Shown one piece after another: positions 3,862 through 14,844 of a DNA stretch of 64,000 nucleotides. The notes under the pieces are model-generated. The model ran no database searches. It had not been told where the DNA came from and was given only the letters and a program-made list of their open reading frames with translations. Source of the stretch: an uncultured Acidobacteriota bacterium (GTDB taxonomy: Bacteria > Actinomycetota > Acidimicrobiia > Spongiisociales > ZC4RG35); assembly GCA_963843585.1 (NCBI GenBank), contig CAWJLJ010000022.1, positions 4,678 to 68,677 on the forward strand. The letters are read 5' to 3'. Each line of letters opens with the position of its first letter. Position 1 is the stretch's first letter. The position numbers were made by a program, and so were the translations under genes.

Positions 3862-6393
3862 TCAGTTGGCGCTCAGCACCGCTTCGACCGCGAACTCACC
3901 CTCGGAGTACAGCACCTCGCCGGCTCGAGCTGCCGCCTTCAGATCATCCTCCGCCTGCCGCACCAGCTCGATCGACTCCGGACTGGCCGAGACCGACACC
4001 GAATCCACCTCGGCCCGCATCGAGACCTTGGCGTCGGATTTGGCCTTACGCACCGCGGAAAGGACGGCACCGGTCTCGGTCAGGACGGCAGGGTCCCCGG
4101 AGTAAGGCGCAAGCTCGTCGACATTGGGCCAGCTCGCCCGATGAACCGAGCCCTCTCTCCACCAGGACCAGACCTCCTCAGTCACGAAGGGCAGGAACGG
4201 GGCAAAGAGCCGCAGATACACCCCGAGCGCCATTTGCAGCGCGGCATGGGCCGATGCGCTCTCGCTCCCACCGCCCTCGTACGCCCGCCCCTTGACCAGC
4301 TCCAGGTAGTCGTCGGTCCAGGTCCAAAACGATCGCTCGACGATCTCGAGAGCACGGGCATAGTCGAACGCATCGAACGCCTCGGTCGCCCGCTCCACCA
4401 CCCTGGCGAGGGCGGCCAGCATCGAGCGGTCGAGTGACACCGAGATGGCCGATGCATCCACGTCTTCGGCGAACCCGAGGGCGAAACGTGATGCGTTCAG
4501 GATCTTCGTGGCGAGACGCCTCCCGATCCTCATGACACCGTGGTCGACGGCGGTGTCGGTGCCGGGACGACCGTTGCAGGACCAATAGCGGACGGCCTCC
4601 GCACCGTGCTCTTCGATCAGGGCGTGGGGTGTGATCACGTTTCCCTTGGACTTGGACATCTTCTTCCTGTCCGGGTCGAGCACCCAGCCATTGATCGTGG
4701 TGTGGGCCCATGGCAGGGCATCGTGCTCGTAGTGCGAGCGGACGATGGTCGAGAAGAGCCACGTGCGGATGATCTCCGGGCCCTGCGGCCGAAGATCCAT
4801 CGGGAAGACCCGGGAGAAGAGGTCTGGATCGTCGTCCCAGTGCCCGGCGATCTGGGGAGTGAGCGAAGACGTGGCCCAGGTGTCCATGATGTCCGGATCA
4901 CCCACGAAACCTCCTGGTTGGCCTCGCTGCCCCTCGTCGTAGCCGGGGGCGGTGGCCGAAGTGGGGTCGACGGGCAGTGACGCCTCGTCAGGGAGGATCG
5001 GGTGGTCGTACTCGACCGCCCCGTCGGCCCCGACCGGGTACCAGACCGGGATGGCCACGCCGAAGAACCGCTGCCGCGAGATCAGCCAGTCCCCGGTCAA
5101 CCCGTTGACCCAGTGCTCGTAGCGCACCTGCATGAAGTCCGGCACCCAGTCCAGCTCGGAGCCGCGTTTCAGGAACTGCGACCTCAGCTCTTGGTCCCGG
5201 CCACCGTTGCGGATGTACCACTGCCGGCTGGAGACGATCTCGAGAGGGCGGTCGCCGTTCTCGTAGAACTTGACCGGATGGGTGATCGGACGCGGCTGAC
5301 CATCGAGATCGGCCGACTCGGTGAGGAGCTCCTCCATCCGCTTCTGGGCCTGATTGGGGTAGAGCCCGGCGATCTGCCGGTATGCCTCACGACCCGACTC
5401 GGAGTCGATCCAATCCGGCACTTCCTGATGAAGACGACCCGTCTGCTGGATCAGGGCGCGGGTGGGCAAATCGAGCTCACGCCACCAGGTCACGTCGGTG
5501 GTGTCGCCCCATGTGCAGATCATGGCGATGCCACTCCCCTTCTCCGGGTCGGCCAGATGATGCGATACGACCGGAAGCTCGACCTCGAAGAGCGGGGAGG
5601 TGACAGTCGTTCCGAAAAGCGCCTGATACCGCTCGTCCTCGGGATGGGCGACCAGGGCGACGCAGGCGGCGATCAGCTCGGGTCGCGTGGTCTCGATGAA
5701 TAGCGGGGACCCGTCCGGTTTCCGGAAGGCCACCCGGTAGTAGGCGGCGGGACGTTCCCTGTCTTCCAGCTCGGCTTGGGCGATCGCCGACTTGAAATCG
5801 ATATCCCAGAGCACCGGTGCCTCCTGGGAGTAGGCCTCACCCCGGGCCAGGTGGTGAAGGAATGCCTTCTGGCTGGTGCGCTGGCTATGGAGATCGATGG
5901 TGGCATAGCTCTGACTCCAATCGACGGACAACCCGAGCGTGCGCCACAGGTCTTCGAAGACCTTCTCGTCCTCGGCGGTGAGACCGTGGCACAGCTCGAT
6001 GAAGTTCCGTCTGCTGATCGAGAGCGGTGGATCGGATGGCTCATCTGGTGGGGTGAAGTCAGGGTCATAGGGCAGGGTCGGGTCGCAACGCACCCCGTAG
6101 TAGTTCTGCACCCGCCGCTCGGTAGGGAGACCGTTGTCGTCCCAGCCCATCGGGTAGAAGACCTCGTTGCCTTTCATCCGGCGGTACCGGGCATGAGCAT
6201 CGGTCTGGACATACCCGAAGACCGATCCCATGTGGAGCGAGCCGGAGACGGTCGGGGGCGGGGTGTCGATCGAGAAGATCTCTGAGCGCTCCTTGGAGCG
6301 ATCGAATCGATAGGTTCCCTCGTTCTCCCAGCGCTCCATCCACTTCGCCTCGAGCCCTTCGAGGGCAGGTTTCTCCGGGATGTTCCTGGTCAT
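3862..6393 (-). CDS. valS: Valine--tRNA ligase
   Basis: DTPPPTVSGSLHMGS (HIGH-like), DWLISRQR, KMSKS; start moved to MTRNIP. Confidence 0.97.
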   Translation of the reverse strand: MTRNIPEKPALEGLEAKWMERWENEGTYRFDRSKERSEIFSIDTPPPTVSGSLHMGSVFGYVQTDAHARYRRMKGNEVFYPMGWDDNGLPTERRVQNYYGVRCDPTLPYDPDFTPPDEPSDPPLSISRRNFIELCHGLTAEDEKVFEDLWRTLGLSVDWSQSYATIDLHSQRTSQKAFLHHLARGEAYSQEAPVLWDIDFKSAIAQAELEDRERPAAYYRVAFRKPDGSPLFIETTRPELIAACVALVAHPEDERYQALFGTTVTSPLFEVELPVVSHHLADPEKGSGIAMICTWGDTTDVTWWRELDLPTRALIQQTGRLHQEVPDWIDSESGREAYRQIAGLYPNQAQKRMEELLTESADLDGQPRPITHPVKFYENGDRPLEIVSSRQWYIRNGGRDQELRSQFLKRGSELDWVPDFMQVRYEHWVNGLTGDWLISRQRFFGVAIPVWYPVGADGAVEYDHPILPDEASLPVDPTSATAPGYDEGQRGQPGGFVGDPDIMDTWATSSLTPQIAGHWDDDPDLFSRVFPMDLRPQGPEIIRTWLFSTIVRSHYEHDALPWAHTTINGWVLDPDRKKMSKSKGNVITPHALIEEHGAEAVRYWSCNGRPGTDTAVDHGVMRIGRRLATKILNASRFALGFAEDVDASAISVSLDRSMLAALARVVERATEAFDAFDYARALEIVERSFWTWTDDYLELVKGRAYEGGGSESASAHAALQMALGVYLRLFAPFLPFVTEEVWSWWREGSVHRASWPNVDELAPYSGDPAVLTETGAVLSAVRKAKSDAKVSMRAEVDSVSVSASPESIELVRQAEDDLKAAARAGEVLYSEGEFAVEAVLSAN

Positions 6394-6487
6394 CGGGGGG
6401 TGAGGGTACCGGCCGAACGAGGATGGATCCGCGCCGGCAATGACGGTCGTAACGCTTCGGGAACGCATGTCGCGGTAGCTTCATGAC

Positions 6488-7656
6488 GTGAACGAGGCGA
6501 CACCCAATGCGGTCTGGCATCGACGGCTGGCGATCGGCGCCGCCGCTCTGATCGCGGCCTTCTATCTCGGCTCGTTGCTCGCTATTCGGGAACGCGGGGC
6601 CGTGGGTGTGGGCAGACGCTCTCGGCTTCTCCGCTCTGGATCTTGTCGTTCACCGTGGTGGGGGTGATCATCGCCTTCCATCGCTCCGGGAAACCCGGAT
6701 CGCCTGGATCTGTCTCGGATTCAGCGGCGTCTGGTCGATCTGGATCTTCCTCGACGGGCTCCTCGCCTATGAAGCCGCCAATCCCGGCTCCTTGAGCCGA
6801 CCTGACCTGATCGCCGCATTGGCCTATCCGTTGTGGGTGCCAGGAGTCGGTCTGATCGGATTCCTTCTCTTGTTGTTCCCCGACGGGCACCTTCCCTCGC
6901 CTCGCTGGCGGCCATGTCGCCTGGCTGCTCGGCTGGCACCATTGCGCTCCTCACCCTCACCGGTTTCTTCCTTCCGGGAGTGATCCAGGAGACGGAGTAT
7001 GTGAACCCGCTGGGCATCGAAGCGTTGGAGACGTTCGATCAAGGAGCAGCCTGGTTTCGCCCTCGTGGTGATCCTCGTCTTGTGCATCGTGGCTTCGGCC
7101 GTCTCCGTCGTCGTCCGCTATCGAACGGCGGTCGGAAGCTGAGCGCCTGCAACTGAAATGGATGATGGCGGCAGGTGTGGTGGCGGCCGCCGCCTATGCG
7201 CTCCTCTTCTTCTGGGACGAACTTCAACATCCAACTGGTGTGGTCGCTCATCCCGATCGCCATCGGGCTGTCAATGCACCGCCACCACCTGTATGACATC
7301 GACCGACTGATCAGCCGGACGATCGTCTACGCGGTCGTGGTCGGCGCCCTGGCAATCGTGTTCGCCTCGGTCATCTTCGTCCTTCAAGTGGTGTCGCCCT
7401 TCCAGAGACGATTTGGCGGTGGCTGCATCGACATTGGCGGCGGCCGCTGCTTTCAACCCGATTCGAAGCAGGGTCCAGGAGCGGGTGGATCGCCGATTCA
7501 ACCGGTCCCGCTACGACGCCGAGAGAGTGTCGGTCGAGTTCGCCACCGGTCTGCGCGACGAGACCGACTCCGACCAAATCTTGGACGGATGGGCAGGCGT
7601 GGTGACCCGAGACCATGCAGCCGACGAGCATGGGCATCTGGTTGAAGCCAGACTGA
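6488..7656 (+). CDS. Multi-pass membrane protein resembling the membrane part of actinobacterial sensor kinases, with no kinase domain; several frameshifts
   Basis: Fragments in different frames: [58 protein letters not shown]. Confidence 0.7.
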
Positions 7657-7659
7657 GAG

Positions 7660-7687
7660 TTGCCATCTCCTGCCAGGCGCGTATGCT
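7660..7687 (+). promoter_or_regulatory. Putative housekeeping-sigma promoter of the his operon
   Basis: TTGCCA (7660-7665), 16 nt spacer, TATGCT (7682-7687); ends 10 nt before the leader ATG. Confidence 0.55.
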
Positions 7688-7697
7688 CATATCCGAC

Positions 7698-7754
7698 ATG
7701 AACCGGCTTTTCGCCCACGGCCATCATCACCATCACCCTTCATGGGTCGGATGA
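7698..7754 (+). CDS. hisL: his operon leader peptide [18 protein letters not shown]
   Basis: 6 His codons, 5 of them consecutive (7722-7736); ends 108 nt upstream of hisG and overlaps the attenuator helices. Confidence 0.85.
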
Positions 7755-7780
7755 CGATGGCCTGAGGCAGAGAAGCCACC

Positions 7781-7819
7781 AACGCAAACGCCGACCCAAG
7801 CGGTCGGCGTTTCTCGTTT
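7781..7819 (+). terminator. his attenuator terminator hairpin
   Basis: AAACGCCGACC (7786-7796), loop CAAGC, GGTCGGCGTTT (7802-7812), then CTCGTTT. Confidence 0.8.
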
Positions 7820-7862
7820 ACGAGGGCGATATCCCGGCCGCACGGCGGGAAGGAACCCCGAC

Positions 7863-8735
7863 ATGAGCATCGAGCCACCGACGATCCACCTGGCCCTCCC
7901 CAAGGGGCGAATGGAGACAGGTGTCTTCAACCTGCTCTCCGCCGCCGGCATCGAGCTCCACGTGGGACAACGGGGTTACCGACCGGTGCTCTCCGAGCCC
8001 GGGTTCGAGGTGAAGCTCCTCAAACCACAGAACATCGTCGAGATGCTGGCGGTCGGGACCCGCGACATCGGATTCGCCGGCGCCGACTGGGTGGCCGAGC
8101 AGCAAGCCGATCTGGTCGAGTTGCTCGACACCGGTCTCGACCCGGTTCGCATCGTGGCTGCCGCCTCGGAGAGCCTGCTCGATGAGGGCGGCAATCTCCC
8201 GAATCGAACACTCGTCGTGGCCAGTGAGTACGAGCGGCTCACCCGGTCCTGGATCGCCAATCGACAACTCGACGCGTCCTTCGTTCGATCGTACGGGGCG
8301 ACGGAGGTCTTCCCACCCGAGGACGCCGACGTGATCGTCGACAACACCGCCACCGGGGAGACCCTCGCCGCCAACGGGTTGGCCGTGGTCGATGAGCTGA
8401 TGCCGTCTTCGACCCGCTTCTACGCGAGTCAGGGCGCCGTGGCCGATCCCGACAAGAAGAGCGCGATCGACGGGCTGGTGTTGAGCCTGCGCTCGGTGCT
8501 CGATGCGCGGAAGAGAGTCATGCTCGAGCTCAACGTGTCGCTCGCCGACCTCGACGCTGTCATCGACGCACTGCCCGCCATGCGCGAGCCCACAGTGGCC
8601 ACACTCCATGGTGGTGCCGGTATGGCGGTCAAGGCGGCCGTGCCCCGAAACGAGCTCCCCCGACTGATCCCCCGGTTGAGGCAACTCGGCGCCACAGACA
8701 TCGCAGTCTCGAAGCTGGAGCAAATCGTCCCATGA
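7863..8735 (+). CDS. hisG: ATP phosphoribosyltransferase (long form)
   Basis: LALPKGR, DIGFAGAD, YGATE, IVDNTATGETL, plus C-terminal regulatory domain. Confidence 0.96.
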   Translation: MSIEPPTIHLALPKGRMETGVFNLLSAAGIELHVGQRGYRPVLSEPGFEVKLLKPQNIVEMLAVGTRDIGFAGADWVAEQQADLVELLDTGLDPVRIVAAASESLLDEGGNLPNRTLVVASEYERLTRSWIANRQLDASFVRSYGATEVFPPEDADVIVDNTATGETLAANGLAVVDELMPSSTRFYASQGAVADPDKKSAIDGLVLSLRSVLDARKRVMLELNVSLADLDAVIDALPAMREPTVATLHGGAGMAVKAAVPRNELPRLIPRLRQLGATDIAVSKLEQIVP

Positions 8736-10405
8736 GCTCACCCGCTACCTATCTCCCGCCGGGCTTCGGCGTGCCCATCGATCTGGACCTCTCCAAGAAC
8801 GAAGGGCGAAGCCGGGCCGAGGAGCTCCTCGATGCGATAGACGACCCCCGGCGATTGGTCGGCCGTTACCCGGACACATCTCCTCTTCGGGCCCGGCTTG
8901 CCGCCCTGCACGGGGTGTCCGAGGATCGGGTCCTGGTGACAGCCGGGGGCGATGATGCCCTTTCCCGTTGTTTTCTTGCACGCGTGTCCGAGGGCGGCGA
9001 GGTGGTCAGCACCTATCCCACTTTCGAGATGATTCCGCGCTACTCCGAGCAACGAGGAGCGACGTTGTCGGAAGTGCCCTGGTGGACCGGCCCCTTCCCT
9101 GTCGATGAGGTCCTGGCGGCCATCGGCGACGACACCGACGCGGTATTCATCGTGTCGCCCAACAACCCGACGGGTGGTGTAGCGACCGAGATCGACCTCC
9201 TCAAGGTGGCCGGTGAAGCGCGATTGCTCGTTCTCGACGCCGCATACGTGGAGTTCGCCGAGTCCGACCCGACGCCCGCATTGCTCGAGCTCGGCAACGT
9301 GGTCGTGACCCGGACCATGTCGAAGGCCTACGGGCTCGCCGGTCTCAGGGTCGGGTATCTGCTCGGGTCCCCGGAACTCGTCGCGGCCATCGGGGCCTTC
9401 GGCAACCCGTACCCGGTCTCTGCACTCTCTGCCGCCCTGGCCGAGACCCGGCTGGACCGTCCCCTCTTGGAGCTGACGACATTCGTCGACGAAGTGAAGA
9501 GGGAACGAGTCGTCCTGACCGGCACCCTGACCGGTGTCGGCGCCCGCCCGCTCCCATCGCAAGGCAATTTCGTCCTCGCCGAGTGCGACGACGCCGAATG
9601 GGTGATATCGGCTGCTGCCTCACTTGGCGTCGGGCTGCGCCGGTTCCCGAGCCGGCCCGGGCTCGAGTCGGCGGTCAGGATCACCGTCCCCGGCGACGCC
9701 GACGATTTCGACCGGCTGGTGACGACCCTCGGCTCTGTGTTCGACCCGCAGGCGATCGTCTTCGATCTCGATGGGGTGATCGCCGATGTCAGCGGCTCCC
9801 AGATCCACGCCATCATCGAAACGGCCCGTAGCTTCGGAGTAGTGATCGAGCCCTCGGACATCGAAGCGGCCAAGACCGATGGCAACAGCAACGACGACTG
9901 GGAGCTGACCCGACGTCTGTGTCTCGAACGGGGCGTGGACGCTCCGATCGAGGCGGTCACCGAGCGGTTCGAGACCCTCTATCAGGGGAGCGGATCCGAG
10001 CCCGGGCTCAAGTCGGCGGAGACATCGCTGGTTGACACCGGGACCTGGCAAAGGTGGGCCGCTAGCAGGCCCCTAGGCATCGTCACCGGGCGCCCTCGCT
10101 CCGATGCGGTCGAGTTCCTGGAACGCTTCGGCCTCACCGATGGGCTTGCTGCCCTGGTGACACGGGAGGATGCCCCACTCAAACCTGACCCGGCGCCGGT
10201 GCTGAAGGCTCTCGAGATCATGGGAGTGACGCGTGCCTGGATGCTCGGGGACACGCCCGACGATCTGGCGGCGGCACGGGGGGCCGGAGTGGTGCCCATC
10301 GGGGTCATCGCACCCGGCGACGACCCGGCACGGGCCAGGGAACGCCTGCGACCCGCGGCCCGAATTCTCGACAAGACGATCGACCTGGAGGAGATGCTGC
10401 CATGA
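8732..10405 (+). CDS. hisC: Histidinol-phosphate aminotransferase fused to a HAD-family phosphatase
   Basis: SPNNPTG, LDAAY and RTMSKAYGLAGLRVGY, followed in frame by FDLDGV, VTGR, KPDP and GDTPDD. Confidence 0.9.
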   Translation: MSSPATYLPPGFGVPIDLDLSKNEGRSRAEELLDAIDDPRRLVGRYPDTSPLRARLAALHGVSEDRVLVTAGGDDALSRCFLARVSEGGEVVSTYPTFEMIPRYSEQRGATLSEVPWWTGPFPVDEVLAAIGDDTDAVFIVSPNNPTGGVATEIDLLKVAGEARLLVLDAAYVEFAESDPTPALLELGNVVVTRTMSKAYGLAGLRVGYLLGSPELVAAIGAFGNPYPVSALSAALAETRLDRPLLELTTFVDEVKRERVVLTGTLTGVGARPLPSQGNFVLAECDDAEWVISAAASLGVGLRRFPSRPGLESAVRITVPGDADDFDRLVTTLGSVFDPQAIVFDLDGVIADVSGSQIHAIIETARSFGVVIEPSDIEAAKTDGNSNDDWELTRRLCLERGVDAPIEAVTERFETLYQGSGSEPGLKSAETSLVDTGTWQRWAASRPLGIVTGRPRSDAVEFLERFGLTDGLAALVTREDAPLKPDPAPVLKALEIMGVTRAWMLGDTPDDLAAARGAGVVPIGVIAPGDDPARARERLRPAARILDKTIDLEEMLP

Positions 10406-10986
10406 CACGACGATCAGAGATCCAACGTGAGACCACCGAGGTCACCATCCGTGGCCACCTCGACATCGACGGGACCGGCACCTCAGACATCAAGACGGGA
10501 CTCGGCTTTCTCGACCACATGCTGGCGGCCCTGGCAAAGCACGGGCGATTCGACCTGACCCTCACCGCCACCGGCGACACCGAGGTGGACGACCACCACA
10601 CGGTTGAGGACTGCGCCATCGTCCTCGGGCGCGCCTTCGACGAGGCACTCGGGGATCGCACCGGCATCGCCCGCTTCGGATATGGCTATGCCCCCCTCGA
10701 CGAGTCGCTGAGCCGGGCGGTCGTCGACCTCTCCGGACGCCCCTGGCCCGAGGTGTCGATCGATTTCACCCGGGAAACCATCGGCGAGGTTGCCACCGAG
10801 AACATCATCCACTTCCTCAGGTCATTCGCCATCGAGGGTCGGATGGCGCTCCACGTCGACCTGTTGCGCGGAGACAACGACCACCACAAGGCCGAGTCGG
10901 CGTTCAAGGCACTGGCGATCGCCCTTCGAGCGGCGGTGACCGCCGACGGCGACGGTGTGCCCAGCACCAAGGGAACACTGACGTGA
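10402..10986 (+). CDS. hisB: Imidazoleglycerol-phosphate dehydratase (monofunctional)
   Basis: FLDHML, DDHHTVED, NDHHKAESAFKA, PSTKG. Confidence 0.97.
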   Translation: MTRRSEIQRETTEVTIRGHLDIDGTGTSDIKTGLGFLDHMLAALAKHGRFDLTLTATGDTEVDDHHTVEDCAIVLGRAFDEALGDRTGIARFGYGYAPLDESLSRAVVDLSGRPWPEVSIDFTRETIGEVATENIIHFLRSFAIEGRMALHVDLLRGDNDHHKAESAFKALAIALRAAVTADGDGVPSTKGTLT

Positions 10987-11588
10987 GACTGGTGACCATC
11001 GTCCCGACCGGGACGGCCAACACCGCTTCGGTCGTCGCTGCCCTGACCCGCCTCGGGGCGGCGGTCGAAGAGGCGGCTTCGGCCGGCGACGTAGAGACCT
11101 CGCCGGGCGTGGTCCTCCCCGGGGTTGGCGCCTTCGGGTCGGCCATGGACAGGATCGACTCGCTGGGTCTCGCCGCCGCGATTCGGGAGAGGATCGAAGC
11201 CAATCGTCCCACCCTTGCAGTGTGCGTCGGGATGCAACTCCTCAGCCGGGACAGCGAGGAGAGCCCGGGAGCCACCGGCCTGAAGGTGCTCGAGGAGACG
11301 GTGGGCCGTTTTGGTGATGGGGTGACGGTGCCCCAGATGGGATGGAACCGCGTCGAGCCCGGACCCGGCTCCCGGTTTGTCGAGTCGGGCTGGGCCTACT
11401 TCGCCAACTCCTACCGGATCGACCGGCTCCCCGAGGGATGGGTGGGCAGCAGCACCGACCACGGTGGCGAGTTCGTCTCGGCGCTGGAGAAGGGTGATGT
11501 CCTCGCCTGTCAGTTCCACCCCGAGCTCTCCGGCGAATGGGGCGCCCGGCTCCTCGACCGCTGGCTCCAAAGAGTGGAGGCGGCATGA
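10983..11588 (+). CDS. hisH: IGP synthase glutaminase subunit
   Basis: LPGVGAF, CVGMQLL, PQMGWN, QFHPE. Confidence 0.95.
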   Translation: MRLVTIVPTGTANTASVVAALTRLGAAVEEAASAGDVETSPGVVLPGVGAFGSAMDRIDSLGLAAAIRERIEANRPTLAVCVGMQLLSRDSEESPGATGLKVLEETVGRFGDGVTVPQMGWNRVEPGPGSRFVESGWAYFANSYRIDRLPEGWVGSSTDHGGEFVSALEKGDVLACQFHPELSGEWGARLLDRWLQRVEAA

Positions 11589-12340
11589 CTCTGGCATCAC
11601 GCGTCATACCGTGTCTCGACATCAAAGACGGGCGCGTCGTCAAGGGGGTCAGGTTCCAGGGTTTGCGGGACGCAGGCGATCCGGTGGAATGTGCCGGTCT
11701 GTACGAGCGCCAGGGAGCCGATGAGATCGTGCTCCTCGATGTGTCGGCCACACCCGAGGGCAGGGGCCACGCGCTGGAGACAGTGCGGGCAGTCCGCTCC
11801 GAGCTCTCCATCCCCCTGTCTGTCGGCGGAGGGGTGAAATCGCCCGACGATGCCGGGCGTCTGCTCGAGGCAGGCGCCGACAAGGTTGGAGTCAACACCG
11901 CTGCCGTGTCACGGCCCGGGCTCATCGGTGAGATTGCGGAGAGATTCGGGACCCAGTGCACGGTGCTGGCCGTCGACGCCGCCGCCGGCGAAGCGGGCTG
12001 GGAGGTGGTGGTGGAGAGCGGCAGGACGAGGACCGGGCTCGATGTCGTCGAGTGGTGCCGTAAGGCGGTGGCGATAGGCGCCGGCGAGATACTCCTCACG
12101 AGTTGGGACCGCGATGGGACCAGGTCGGGCTACGACCTCGACCTGATCGCGTCGGTCTCGTCTGTGGTGACCGTCCCCGTGATCGCCTCAGGTGGCGCCG
12201 ACCGGCCGGGCCATCTGGTCGCAGCGATCGAAGCCGGGGCCTCGGCTGCGCTGATCGCCTCGATCCTTCATGACGGCGACACGACGGTGGGAGAGCTGAA
12301 AGCGGCGCTGCGTGAGGCCGGGATAGTGGTGCGGCCATGA
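11585..12340 (+). CDS. hisF: IGP synthase cyclase subunit
   Basis: RVIPCLD..GRVVKG, GADKV..NTAAV, RDGT..GYD, VIASGG. Confidence 0.96.
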   Translation: MTLASRVIPCLDIKDGRVVKGVRFQGLRDAGDPVECAGLYERQGADEIVLLDVSATPEGRGHALETVRAVRSELSIPLSVGGGVKSPDDAGRLLEAGADKVGVNTAAVSRPGLIGEIAERFGTQCTVLAVDAAAGEAGWEVVVESGRTRTGLDVVEWCRKAVAIGAGEILLTSWDRDGTRSGYDLDLIASVSSVVTVPVIASGGADRPGHLVAAIEAGASAALIASILHDGDTTVGELKAALREAGIVVRP

Positions 12341-13603
12341 TCATCCCATCCATCGACATATCAGGCGGGCAGGCGGTCCAACTGGTGGGTGGCGAGACGC
12401 CGGCTATCGAGGCCGGTGACCCACTCCCCATCCTGGAGCGCTTCGGCCTGGTCGGCGAGGTCGCGGTGGTCGATATCGATGCCGCTCGTGGCGAAGGCGA
12501 CAACGCTGAGCAGATCACCGAGCTGTGCCGCCGGGGCCGTGTCCGGGTAGGGGGCGGGATTCGGGACCTTGCCGCCGCCAGGCGCTGGCTGGACCTGGGC
12601 GCCGAGAAGATCGTGATCGGGACCGCGGCAACACCGGACTTGCTCGGCGAGCTGCCCCGCGACCGGGTGGTCGTCGCGCTCGACTCGCGAGATGGCGAGG
12701 TGTTGACCCATGGCTGGAGACAGGGAACAGGGACCGGCGTGCTGGAGCGGATCCAGCAATTGAGGGGACTCTGCGGTGGGTTCCTGGTCACTTTTGTCGA
12801 GAGGGAAGGCCGACTGGCCGGGACCGACATCGATCGGGCCGCCACGGTGATCGAGGCTGCGTCGCCGGCGAGGGTCACAATCGCTGGGGGCATCACCACC
12901 CCCGACGAGGTGGCCGAGCTCGACCGGATGGGCGCCGACGCGCAGGTGGGCATGGCCCTGTACGGCGGGCAGCTCACCCTGGCCGGATCACTCGCCGCAA
13001 TGATGCATTCCGACCGCCCCGACGGCCTATGGCCCACTGTGGTGGTCGACGAGCTGGGGACCGCGCTGGGGCTCGTCTACTCCAGTTCGGAGAGCCTGGA
13101 CCGGGCGTTCGAGGAGCGGCGAGGCGATCTATCACAGCCGCACACGCGGGGTCTGGGCCAAGGGTGAGACGTCGGGCGCCACCCAGGACCTCCTGGCGGT
13201 AGACATCGACTGCGATCGAGACACGCTCCGTTTCACCGTCAGACAGAGCGAGCCCGGGTTCTGCCACACCAGTCACCGAACCTGCTGGGGAGAGGACTAC
13301 GGCGTGGGGCGGCTGGCGAGACGTCTCGGTCAGATCGCCGTCTCCGATGACTTCGCATCGAACACACGAAAGCTCTTCCACGATCCAGACCTGCTCGCGG
13401 CCAAGTTGAATGAAGAGGCGGCGGAACTGGGAGCCGCTCAAACCAGCGAAGAAGTGATCCACGAGGCCGCCGACCTCCTCTATTTCCTCCTGGTGAGGGC
13501 TCGTGCCGCAGGTGTGGATCTCGACGAAGTGGCAAGGGAGCTCGACCGGCGCGAGCGCCGAGCCACCCGTCGGCCGATGACGACGAAGGAGAGCCTGCCA
13601 TGA
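12337..13603 (+). CDS. hisA-hisIE: HisA-like TIM barrel fused to HisI and HisE; frameshift near 13122
   Basis: IPSID..GGGIR..ALD..THGW is in frame with DGLWPTVVVD. After the shift come WAKGETSG, DCDRD, FCH..TCW, then KLNEEAAEL and EAADLLYF. Confidence 0.85.
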
Positions 13604-14844
13604 GATCGCTGCCCCGCACCGAGGTCTTGCCTGCTGTCGTTCGCCGCCCTGCCGACTTCGATACAGGGACTCTCATCGACGAGATCCTCGAGGAGGTGCG
13701 TACGGTCGGCGAGCCTGCGATTCGCCGGTTTTCTGAGCACTTTGGCGACCTGGCCCCGGGTGATCAGATCGTTCACGACCGGGCAGACCTGAAGAAGGCC
13801 CTCGATCGGATTGGCGCCGACGAGCGCCAGACATTGGAGAGAGTGGCTTCGCGGATCAGGCATTTCGCCGAGGCTCAGCGGGAAGCCCTGATCGATGTCG
13901 ACGTCGAGGTGACCGGAGGACGAGCCGGGCATCGCTGGGTACCGGTGGCATCGGTGGGCGCCTATGCGCCGGGAGGGCGGTATCCCCTGCCCTCCTCGGT
14001 CCTGATGACCGTGGTACCGGCATGGGTCGCCGGAGTGAAGACGGTGTGGGCCGCCTCACCACGCCCGACCGACGTCACACTGGCCGCAGCCGCCATCGCC
14101 GGGGCCGACGGCTTGCTCGCGATCGGGGGCGCCCAGGCCATCGCCAGCTTGGCCTTTGGCGTTTTGTCCCCTGCTTGTGATCTCATCGTGGGCCCGGGGA
14201 ACAAGTACGTGACAGCCGCGAAGAGGGCGCTATTTGGTGAGGTCGGGATAGATGGCCTTGCCGGCCCGAGTGAGATCCTGGTCGTCGCCGACGACCGGGC
14301 CGACCCCGCGTTGGTCGCCGCCGACCTGCTTGCCCAGGCGGAGCACGACATCGACGCCCTCCCACTCCTGGTGACGACCAGCCTGCGTCTGGCCAATGAC
14401 GTGGATCACCAGATCGAGCTTCAGCTTGCCGACCTGCCGACCTCGTCGGTTGCCCGGCAAGCACTGACCAATGGCTTCTCCCTCGTGGTCGGCTCGTTGG
14501 ATGAAGCCGTGTCCGCTGCCGAGCTGGTGGCACCAGAGCATCTGGCCCTGCACGTCGAGCAGCCCGGGGATCTGTTGGGGAAGCTCACGTCCTACGGCTC
14601 GGTGTTCCTCGGTGGCCGGAGCGCCGAGGCGTTCGCCGACTATGGAGTCGGCCCCAACCACGTCCTCCCCACTGCGGGCGGAGCCAGGTACCAGTCCGGG
14701 CTCTCGGTGATGACATTCCTCAAGGCCCCGACCTGGTCACGGCTCGACGACCCGGCTGAGTTGATCGATGACACGGTCCTCCTCGCCCGTCTCGAGGGTC
14801 TCGAGGGTCATGCGCGCGCCGCGATGATCCGTGTCGAGCCGTAG
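13600..14844 (+). CDS. hisD: Histidinol dehydrogenase
   Basis: YAPGG, GGAQA, GPGN, AGPSE, QAEH, APEHL, GPNHVLPT. Confidence 0.96.
   Translation: MRSLPRTEVLPAVVRRPADFDTGTLIDEILEEVRTVGEPAIRRFSEHFGDLAPGDQIVHDRADLKKALDRIGADERQTLERVASRIRHFAEAQREALIDVDVEVTGGRAGHRWVPVASVGAYAPGGRYPLPSSVLMTVVPAWVAGVKTVWAASPRPTDVTLAAAAIAGADGLLAIGGAQAIASLAFGVLSPACDLIVGPGNKYVTAAKRALFGEVGIDGLAGPSEILVVADDRADPALVAADLLAQAEHDIDALPLLVTTSLRLANDVDHQIELQLADLPTSSVARQALTNGFSLVVGSLDEAVSAAELVAPEHLALHVEQPGDLLGKLTSYGSVFLGGRSAEAFADYGVGPNHVLPTAGGARYQSGLSVMTFLKAPTWSRLDDPAELIDDTVLLARLEGLEGHARAAMIRVEP

Follow-up and report, generated by a model that had tools for sequence, protein, structure and literature searches.

The window, the whole 64,000-nucleotide stretch of DNA analysed here, carries a histidine biosynthesis operon on its plus strand. 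The first gene is hisG (7863–8735), which encodes the long form of ATP phosphoribosyltransferase (HisG and HisG_C domains) and has a Shine-Dalgarno-like AAGGA motif at 7850–7854. A CGGG-AAGGAA-CCCG arrangement around this ribosome-binding site (window 7844–7862) recurs in most relatives in our alignment and may form a small hairpin with the Shine-Dalgarno sequence in its loop, a structure that RNAalifold did not call. The rest of the operon spans 8732–14844, also on the plus strand, and starts with a gene for a 557-aa protein (8732–10405) composed of a HisC-like Aminotran_1_2 domain and a C-terminal HAD_2 hydrolase domain, presumably a histidinol-phosphate aminotransferase fused to a histidinol-phosphatase. 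This is followed by hisB/IGPD (10402–10986), hisH (10983–11588), a His_biosynth gene (11537–12340), a fused gene in which a second His_biosynth domain runs on into HisI (PRA-CH) and HisE (PRA-PH) (12337–13603), and hisD (13600–14844) as the last gene. The fused gene is frameshifted in the window near 13120–13135, where the coding sequence passes into the +1 frame for the HisI part (EERRG followed by AIYHSRTRGVWAKGETSG). The same fusion lies wholly in one frame in all five relatives fetched, and the shift in the window is either an assembly error or specific to this genome. Upstream of the operon, the minus strand encodes an 868-aa class I aminoacyl-tRNA synthetase (3862–6468; tRNA-synt_1 and Anticodon_1 domains), and the ORFs at 6606–7645 gave no Pfam match.

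Between these ORFs and hisG we identified a short plus-strand leader ORF (7698–7754) that starts with ATG at 7698 and contains 18 codons followed by a TGA stop codon at 7752–7754. Six of its codons specify histidine, in a 5+1 arrangement at 7716–7718 and 7722–7736, and the distance from the leader stop to the hisG start is 108 nt. The frame is also open further upstream, forming a 113-codon ORF with a TTG start (7413–7754); in DNA this rich in G+C, we consider the extension fortuitous. Counting both strands, the 3.4-Mb genome contains only seven runs of five CAY codons, one of which is the leader run. The other six are located on contigs C3, C19, C22 (outside the window), C25, C34 and C35 of this genome (G000). 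All six lie within stop-to-stop frames of 117–303 codons, a weak criterion because the real leader also sits in a long open frame. None is matched by R1, a covariance model built from the 48 Acidimicrobiia-type sequences described below, which has a single match in the genome; no second His leader was found among the other (CAY)5 runs.

A promoter-like site on the plus strand (7660–7687) is composed of a –35 hexamer TTGCCA (7660–7665), a 16-nt spacer and a –10 hexamer TATGCT (7682–7687), and is the sole sigma-70-like site in 7000–8500 (mean of 0.3 in shuffled sequences). The initial annotation had reported a candidate promoter about 10 nt upstream and the absence of a Shine-Dalgarno sequence, and both points hold: 10 nt separate the –10 hexamer from the leader ATG, and these 10 nt are devoid of such a sequence. 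This arrangement recurs across the Acidimicrobiia: a TAnnnT hexamer ends 8–11 nt before the leader ATG in 48/48 versions (10 nt in 37), and a TTGnnn hexamer is found 16–18 nt further upstream in 38 of the 48. The accessible text of a study of Corynebacterium glutamicum places the –10 box of that species 7 ± 1 nt from the start site (PMC3896937). Based on this spacing and the position of the –10 hexamer in the window, the leader transcript is predicted to have a 5' UTR of only 2–4 nt, and probably does not start with a true leaderless 5'-AUG.

The leader RNA can be divided into regions, all on the plus strand, that engage in alternative pairing. Region 1 (7705–7741) holds the His codons and forms the 5' arm of a 1:2, or anti-antiterminator, hairpin. 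The 3' arm of this hairpin, region 2b (7752–7777; TGACGATGGCC...GAAGCC), can pair with the His codons as well as with the beginning of the ORF; both arms were delineated from the minimum free energy (MFE) fold and pair counts. Region 2a, TGGGTCGG (7743–7750), ends 1 nt before the leader stop codon and represents the 5' arm of the antiterminator. Region 3 (7786–7798) is shared between the 5' arm of the terminator, AAACGCCGACC (7786–7796), and the 3' arm of the antiterminator, CCGACCCA (7791–7798), and region 4 (7802–7819) consists of the 3' arm of the terminator, GGTCGGCGTTT (7802–7812), and an interrupted U-tract, TTTCTCGTTT (7810–7819). Helix 1:2 pairs GGCCATCATCA (7719–7729) with TGACGATGGCC (7752–7762) and contains one A/C mismatch (7726/7755). 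The antiterminator helix 2:3 comprises 8 perfect base pairs (7743–7750 with 7791–7798), and the terminator helix 3:4 comprises 11 perfect base pairs (7786–7796 with 7802–7812) closed by a CAAGC loop. The initial annotation had described the 18-codon ORF and these three helices at coordinates that proved correct to the base when we re-read 7400–8100. We add that region 2 (GGGUCGG) does more than lie in the loop of helix 1:2: it pairs with CAYCACCC within the 1:2 hairpin, and this pairing forms one of the consensus hairpins described below.

Folding of the segment 7690–7830 (141 nt) yielded –68 kcal/mol (z = –6.9), and 0/200 shuffled sequences were as stable. The G+C-rich terminator hairpin alone has a value of –18.9 kcal/mol. 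A simple terminator scan called no site, because the first Ts fall within the stem and the T-tract is interrupted (UUUCUCGUUU). With a ribosome footprint masked, equilibrium folding always kept the terminator (–32.3 versus –23.7 kcal/mol), and antitermination must therefore be kinetic, as in classical systems. Co-transcriptional folds gave the corresponding picture: for an RNA ending at 7800 and masked up to 7739, that is, over the His codons, the MFE structure was the antiterminator (–21.5 kcal/mol), and for the same stage with no ribosome it was the 1:2 hairpin (–42 kcal/mol), which leaves region 3 unpaired. The masked-footprint folding proposed in the initial annotation thus favoured the antiterminator during transcription, whereas the terminator won at equilibrium.

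The element shares with classical leader-peptide attenuators an ORF with cognate codons, a terminator, a mutually exclusive antiterminator and 1:2 pairing that involves the His codons. Based on this, we consider it highly likely that it is a classical ribosome-mediated transcription attenuator that senses charged tRNA-His, and it very probably switches the his operon on when histidine is short. According to this model, transcription would start a few bases before the leader ATG and a ribosome would translate the 18-codon leader. When His-tRNA is plentiful, the ribosome would reach the TGA at 7752 and cover region 2 (7743–7750); after its release, the His codons would pair with 7752–7777, and region 2 would also be held in the resulting long 1:2 hairpin. 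In either state region 3 would be left to pair with region 4, and the terminator (7786–7812 plus the U-tract) would halt RNA polymerase before hisG, with termination expected at about 7817. When His-tRNA is scarce, the ribosome would stall on the first His codons (7716–7730), holding region 1 and exposing region 2. The exposed region 2 would pair with region 3 as the latter emerges, the terminator would form too late, and the nine-gene his operon would be transcribed. This model predicts that initiation on the leader occurs from a 2–4-nt 5' UTR with no Shine-Dalgarno sequence; the efficiency of such initiation is putative and was counted against the attenuator.

Searches of the window (6500–9000) against Rfam returned no match to His_leader (RF00514) at E ≤ 10 and no T-box match, and 16 related loci gave no match at E ≤ 1, including to His_leader and T-box. 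The best Rfam match in the window was to Thr_leader (7703–7818; 21.8 bits, E 0.45), below the gathering score of 55. We rejected membership of that family, as the sub-threshold match reflects the generic layout of attenuators.

We retrieved the best 80 hisG loci from contigs representing one genome per species, and in 51 of these an ORF with at least four His in eight residues was present within 400 nt upstream of hisG. The DNA of 7640–7870 is matched in 26/41 relatives, among them 22 of the 24 other genomes of the genus (unpublished G018 and G027 counted). Record titles of the closest contigs name Acidimicrobiia metagenome-assembled genomes (MAGs), and the initial assignment of this DNA to an actinobacterium was right at the phylum level. 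For detailed comparison we assembled 48 distinct Acidimicrobiia-type versions, namely the window and 47 loci. Each of these has an ATG-started leader ORF of 17–23 codons with 4–6 His, and the His codons are synonymously mixed (CAC 178, CAT 99). The leader stop codon is TGA in 44 versions and TAG in the remaining 4. Region 2 could be located in 44/48 versions and ends 1 nt before the stop codon in 37 of those. The expectation that the His run and stems would be kept at related hisG loci was borne out in 48/48 versions. In three of the loci (L007, L087 and L091), a 1-nt insertion alters the C-terminal peptide and the RNA motif GGGTCGGATGA is kept, which argues that the 3' part of the leader is constrained as RNA and not as protein. 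We also considered that the conserved C-terminal ...HPSRVG might act as a peptide and rejected this, since in the frameshifted versions it is the RNA that is retained, not the peptide. Seven loci with Acidimicrobiia-type leaders (L004, L005, L020, L023–L025 and L050) have record titles naming Acidobacteriota or Armatimonadetes, yet they nest within the Acidimicrobiia clade of HisG sequences, and these labels are probably wrong.

The RNAalifold consensus of the 48 sequences contains two hairpins, one formed by the last His/Pro codons with region 2 (CAYCACCC:GGGUCGGNUG) and the other corresponding to the terminator. When the 1:2 hairpin and terminator of the window were projected onto the alignment, 80.2% of cells were paired, compared with 26.8–41.7% when the partners were slid. 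Both sides had changed in 15 of the 40 pairs, a number reached by 6/500 shuffles, and the covariation score of 0.108 (shuffled mean 0.082) was reached by 0/500. This variation is mostly in the outer 1:2 helix. The GGC/GCC change of the window at 7720/7761 is compensatory relative to its neighbours in the alignment. For the antiterminator, 91.0% of cells were paired compared with 25.9–56.1% for slid partners, and 5 of the 8 antiterminator pairs show no variation. Within the Acidimicrobiia, helices 2:3 and 3:4 have invariant cores, and T-rich sequence follows the terminator in all versions. Three-way pairing would give such near-invariance of regions 2, 3 and 4, which taken alone is neutral with respect to the helices.

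Covariation in the 2:3 and 3:4 cores rests on distant sequences, which were paired by a custom script. When the 42 other hisG loci were searched with R1, 15 had a plus-strand match over the full length of the model at E ≤ 0.004; one of these (L060) is doubtful, as no terminator was found there. According to the record titles, which carry MAG labels as deposited, the distant matches belong to Planctomycetota, Myxococcota, Gemmatimonadota, Candidatus Eisenbacteria, Thermodesulfobacteriota and one "Cyanobacteria". At these distant loci the short His-bearing ORF ends at or beside a segment complementary to the 5' arm of the terminator, and we identified several compensatory variants of region 2 and the terminator arm: GAGCCGG/CCGGCTC in L075, GGGCCGG/CCGGCCC in L063, L053 and L038, GGCTGGT/ACCGGCC in L071, and GCGGTCGGCG/CGCCGGCCGC in L048. 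In 17 of 18 sequences from several phyla, no more than 13 nt separate the first base of the stop codon from the end of the most stable duplex formed with the 5' arm of the terminator, the exception being L043 at 21 nt. The energy of this duplex is non-significant in several G+C-rich distant sequences (shuffles reach it in 0 to 174 of 500), and its constant position is the stronger argument for the distant versions. Together, the conservation in 48/48 versions, the distant covariation and the co-transcriptional folds support the proposal of the initial annotation that stalling on the His codons would free 7743–7750 to sequester the terminator arm.

Among the metatranscriptome runs listed (21, all with small word shares), assembled contigs of four RNA runs from four studies cover the leader. 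Contigs of X1, X2, X4 and X5 continue past the terminator towards or into hisG, although contigs cannot show levels. Two contigs of X2 end at 7817, a weak hint given that assembled contigs show neither the starts nor the ends of transcripts. Contig coverage also includes the promoter, which precedes the predicted start, and this makes DNA carry-over possible. The passage of several contigs through the hairpin into hisG would suit an alternative in which the leader acts post-transcriptionally or via Rho, stalling altering Rho access or hisG translation, and 7786–7812 is an inefficient intrinsic terminator; the interrupted U-tract missed by the consensus scan and the conservation of a segment GGGAAGGAA..CCC around the ribosome-binding site of hisG point the same way. 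We regard this alternative as very unlikely, because the hairpin and T-tract are nearly invariant and are followed by T-rich sequence in all versions, and because, in all lineages examined, region 2 is complementary to the 5' arm of the terminator, which makes sense only with formation of the hairpin as the regulated step. In addition, RNAalifold on 25 sequences predicted 0 pairs, and thus no conserved structure, between the terminator and hisG, and with 108 nt between the leader stop and the hisG start, the distance is too great for the two to be translationally coupled.

The cores of regions 2, 3 and 4 are invariant in the 48 sequences, which is unusual for plain hairpins, and the leader has no Shine-Dalgarno sequence. 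Both features would fit a model in which the hairpins switch independently of translation, the choice between antiterminator and terminator being made by a ligand, by uncharged tRNA-His or by a protein, and the small ORF is incidental. Core invariance is, however, explained by the three-way pairing of region 2 with region 1, region 2 with region 3 and region 3 with region 4. An incidental ORF is also difficult to reconcile with the ATG, frame, length and 4–6 His kept in 48/48 versions through synonymous CAC/CAT changes, or with the recurrence of His-rich ORFs in distant phyla despite differing nucleotide sequence. As we also obtained no match to a T-box or riboswitch family in 6500–9000 of the window or in 16 related loci, we judge such a switch to be highly improbable. 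That the hairpin is merely the terminator of an upstream gene (7175–7645) and the His run a chance ORF in G+C-rich DNA, as the 113 codons of open frame and the six other (CAY)5 runs in frames of 117–303 codons might suggest, is scarcely credible and already contradicted by the conserved promoter between the upstream gene and the leader ORF and by the linkage of the module to hisG, which holds in 12/12 genomes and in other phyla with different upstream genes.

The taxonomic range of the predicted attenuator was assessed with R1 in samples of genomes under strict filters. Of 151 evenly drawn Acidimicrobiia genomes, 12 have an R1 match, in each case 36–72 nt upstream of hisG, and these genomes all belong to the order of the window; when 151 genomes were drawn from the whole phylum, 2 were matched, both from the family of the window. 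HisG itself was identified in 101 of the 151 genomes of the class sample. The genomes with 61–100% HisG identity to the window are exactly the 12 R1-positive ones, whereas the other 89 HisG sequences, members of the same family included, show at most 42% identity. HisG sequences of other phyla among the best hisG loci are 62–68% identical to that of the window. In a FastTree phylogeny of 89 HisG sequences, for which only SH-like support is available, one clade (support 96) unites 40 rows with a leader, the window among them, most of which are labelled Acidimicrobiia. This clade sits within an 81-row multi-phylum group (support 99) that is separated from 8 other Acidimicrobiia HisG sequences, and 14 of the 41 rows of this group outside the clade also have a leader, in scattered positions. 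This distribution suggests that hisG and the attenuator were acquired or kept together. Judged from these samples, the attenuator is not a general feature of Actinobacteria: it accompanies a single HisG subtype, and this in only part of one order.

More tentatively, the attenuator and the HisG subtype may represent one regulated cassette that moved between phyla and arrived once in Acidimicrobiia, replacing the usual HisG of the class. In Actinomycetota, Planctomycetota, Myxococcota, Gemmatimonadota and others, such a cassette would have a near-invariant CCGRCC core of three-way pairing and a transcript almost devoid of a 5' UTR. We hold this possibility at clearly less than even chances; if it is true, classical attenuation would operate on leaderless-type initiation across many little-studied phyla.

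The closest known counterpart is hisL of E. coli and Salmonella (RF00514), the mechanism of which we take as summarised in the accessible parts of PMC3896937 and PMC9413887. Both elements feature a short ORF with a His run before hisG, alternative helices 1:2, 2:3 and 3:4 and an intrinsic terminator, with the same predicted logic. The two differ in that hisL has 7 His codons in its run compared with 5+1 here, and the present element shows no sequence or structure match to RF00514. It also lacks a Shine-Dalgarno sequence, is predicted to have a 5' UTR of at most a few bases, has a G+C-rich CCGRCC core motif with an interrupted U-tract, and belongs to a host of a Gram-positive-type phylum. Outside Proteobacteria, the sections available of PMC9413887 and PMC2965389 describe his attenuators in Firmicutes (Bacillus cereus group, Peptostreptococcaceae and Erysipelotrichales) that were predicted by comparative genomics and are unmatched by RF00514. 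These resemble the present element, by their description, in combining a His-leader peptide with a terminator and an antiterminator, and differ from it in belonging to other phyla and in lying upstream of hisZ or his operons.

Within Actinobacteria, attenuators of the same mechanism class are described for trp, ilvB, leuS/trpS and cys in the accessible text of PMC1262725. The same text of this survey reports no conserved RNA structure upstream of his operons, and according to the available portion of PMC9413887, his attenuators belong to Proteobacteria and a few Firmicutes, with T-boxes being the type assigned to Actinobacteria. As far as these portions of PMC1262725 and PMC9413887 go, they agree with the initial annotation, in which the attenuators described for Actinobacteria are mainly for trp, ilv/leu and cys, and not for his. 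For C. glutamicum hisD, a T-box-like 5' UTR is reported in the part of PMC3896937 available. Mycobacterial leaderless short ORFs rich in cysteine codons, which attenuate the expression of operons, as outlined in the accessible text of bioRxiv 10.1101/834739, are likewise regulatory, actinobacterial, enriched in cognate codons, devoid of a Shine-Dalgarno sequence and located at or near the mRNA 5' end. Those poly-cysteine ORFs sense cysteine, whereas the element in the window is predicted to sense histidine and has a putative 2–4-nt 5' UTR. His-containing leader peptides of Actinobacteria are the subject of a 2015 conference paper, known to us through its citation in the accessible text of PMC4833913, that may be prior art; apart from the content of that paper, we found no description in the literature of a his leader-peptide attenuator in Actinobacteria or Acidimicrobiia.

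The mechanism itself is known, and the conserved RNA family is absent from Rfam 15, so that genome annotation misses both the small ORF and the regulator. The attenuator proposed here would extend textbook amino-acid attenuation to the histidine genes of an actinobacterial class for which surveys, in their accessible text, give a T-box-like element or nothing. It also raises the question of how ribosomes could be loaded onto an almost leaderless RNA quickly enough for translation to remain coupled to RNA polymerase. Finally, the strict linkage of the attenuator to one cross-phylum HisG subtype would make it a clean case for the joint spread of a gene and its cis-regulator.
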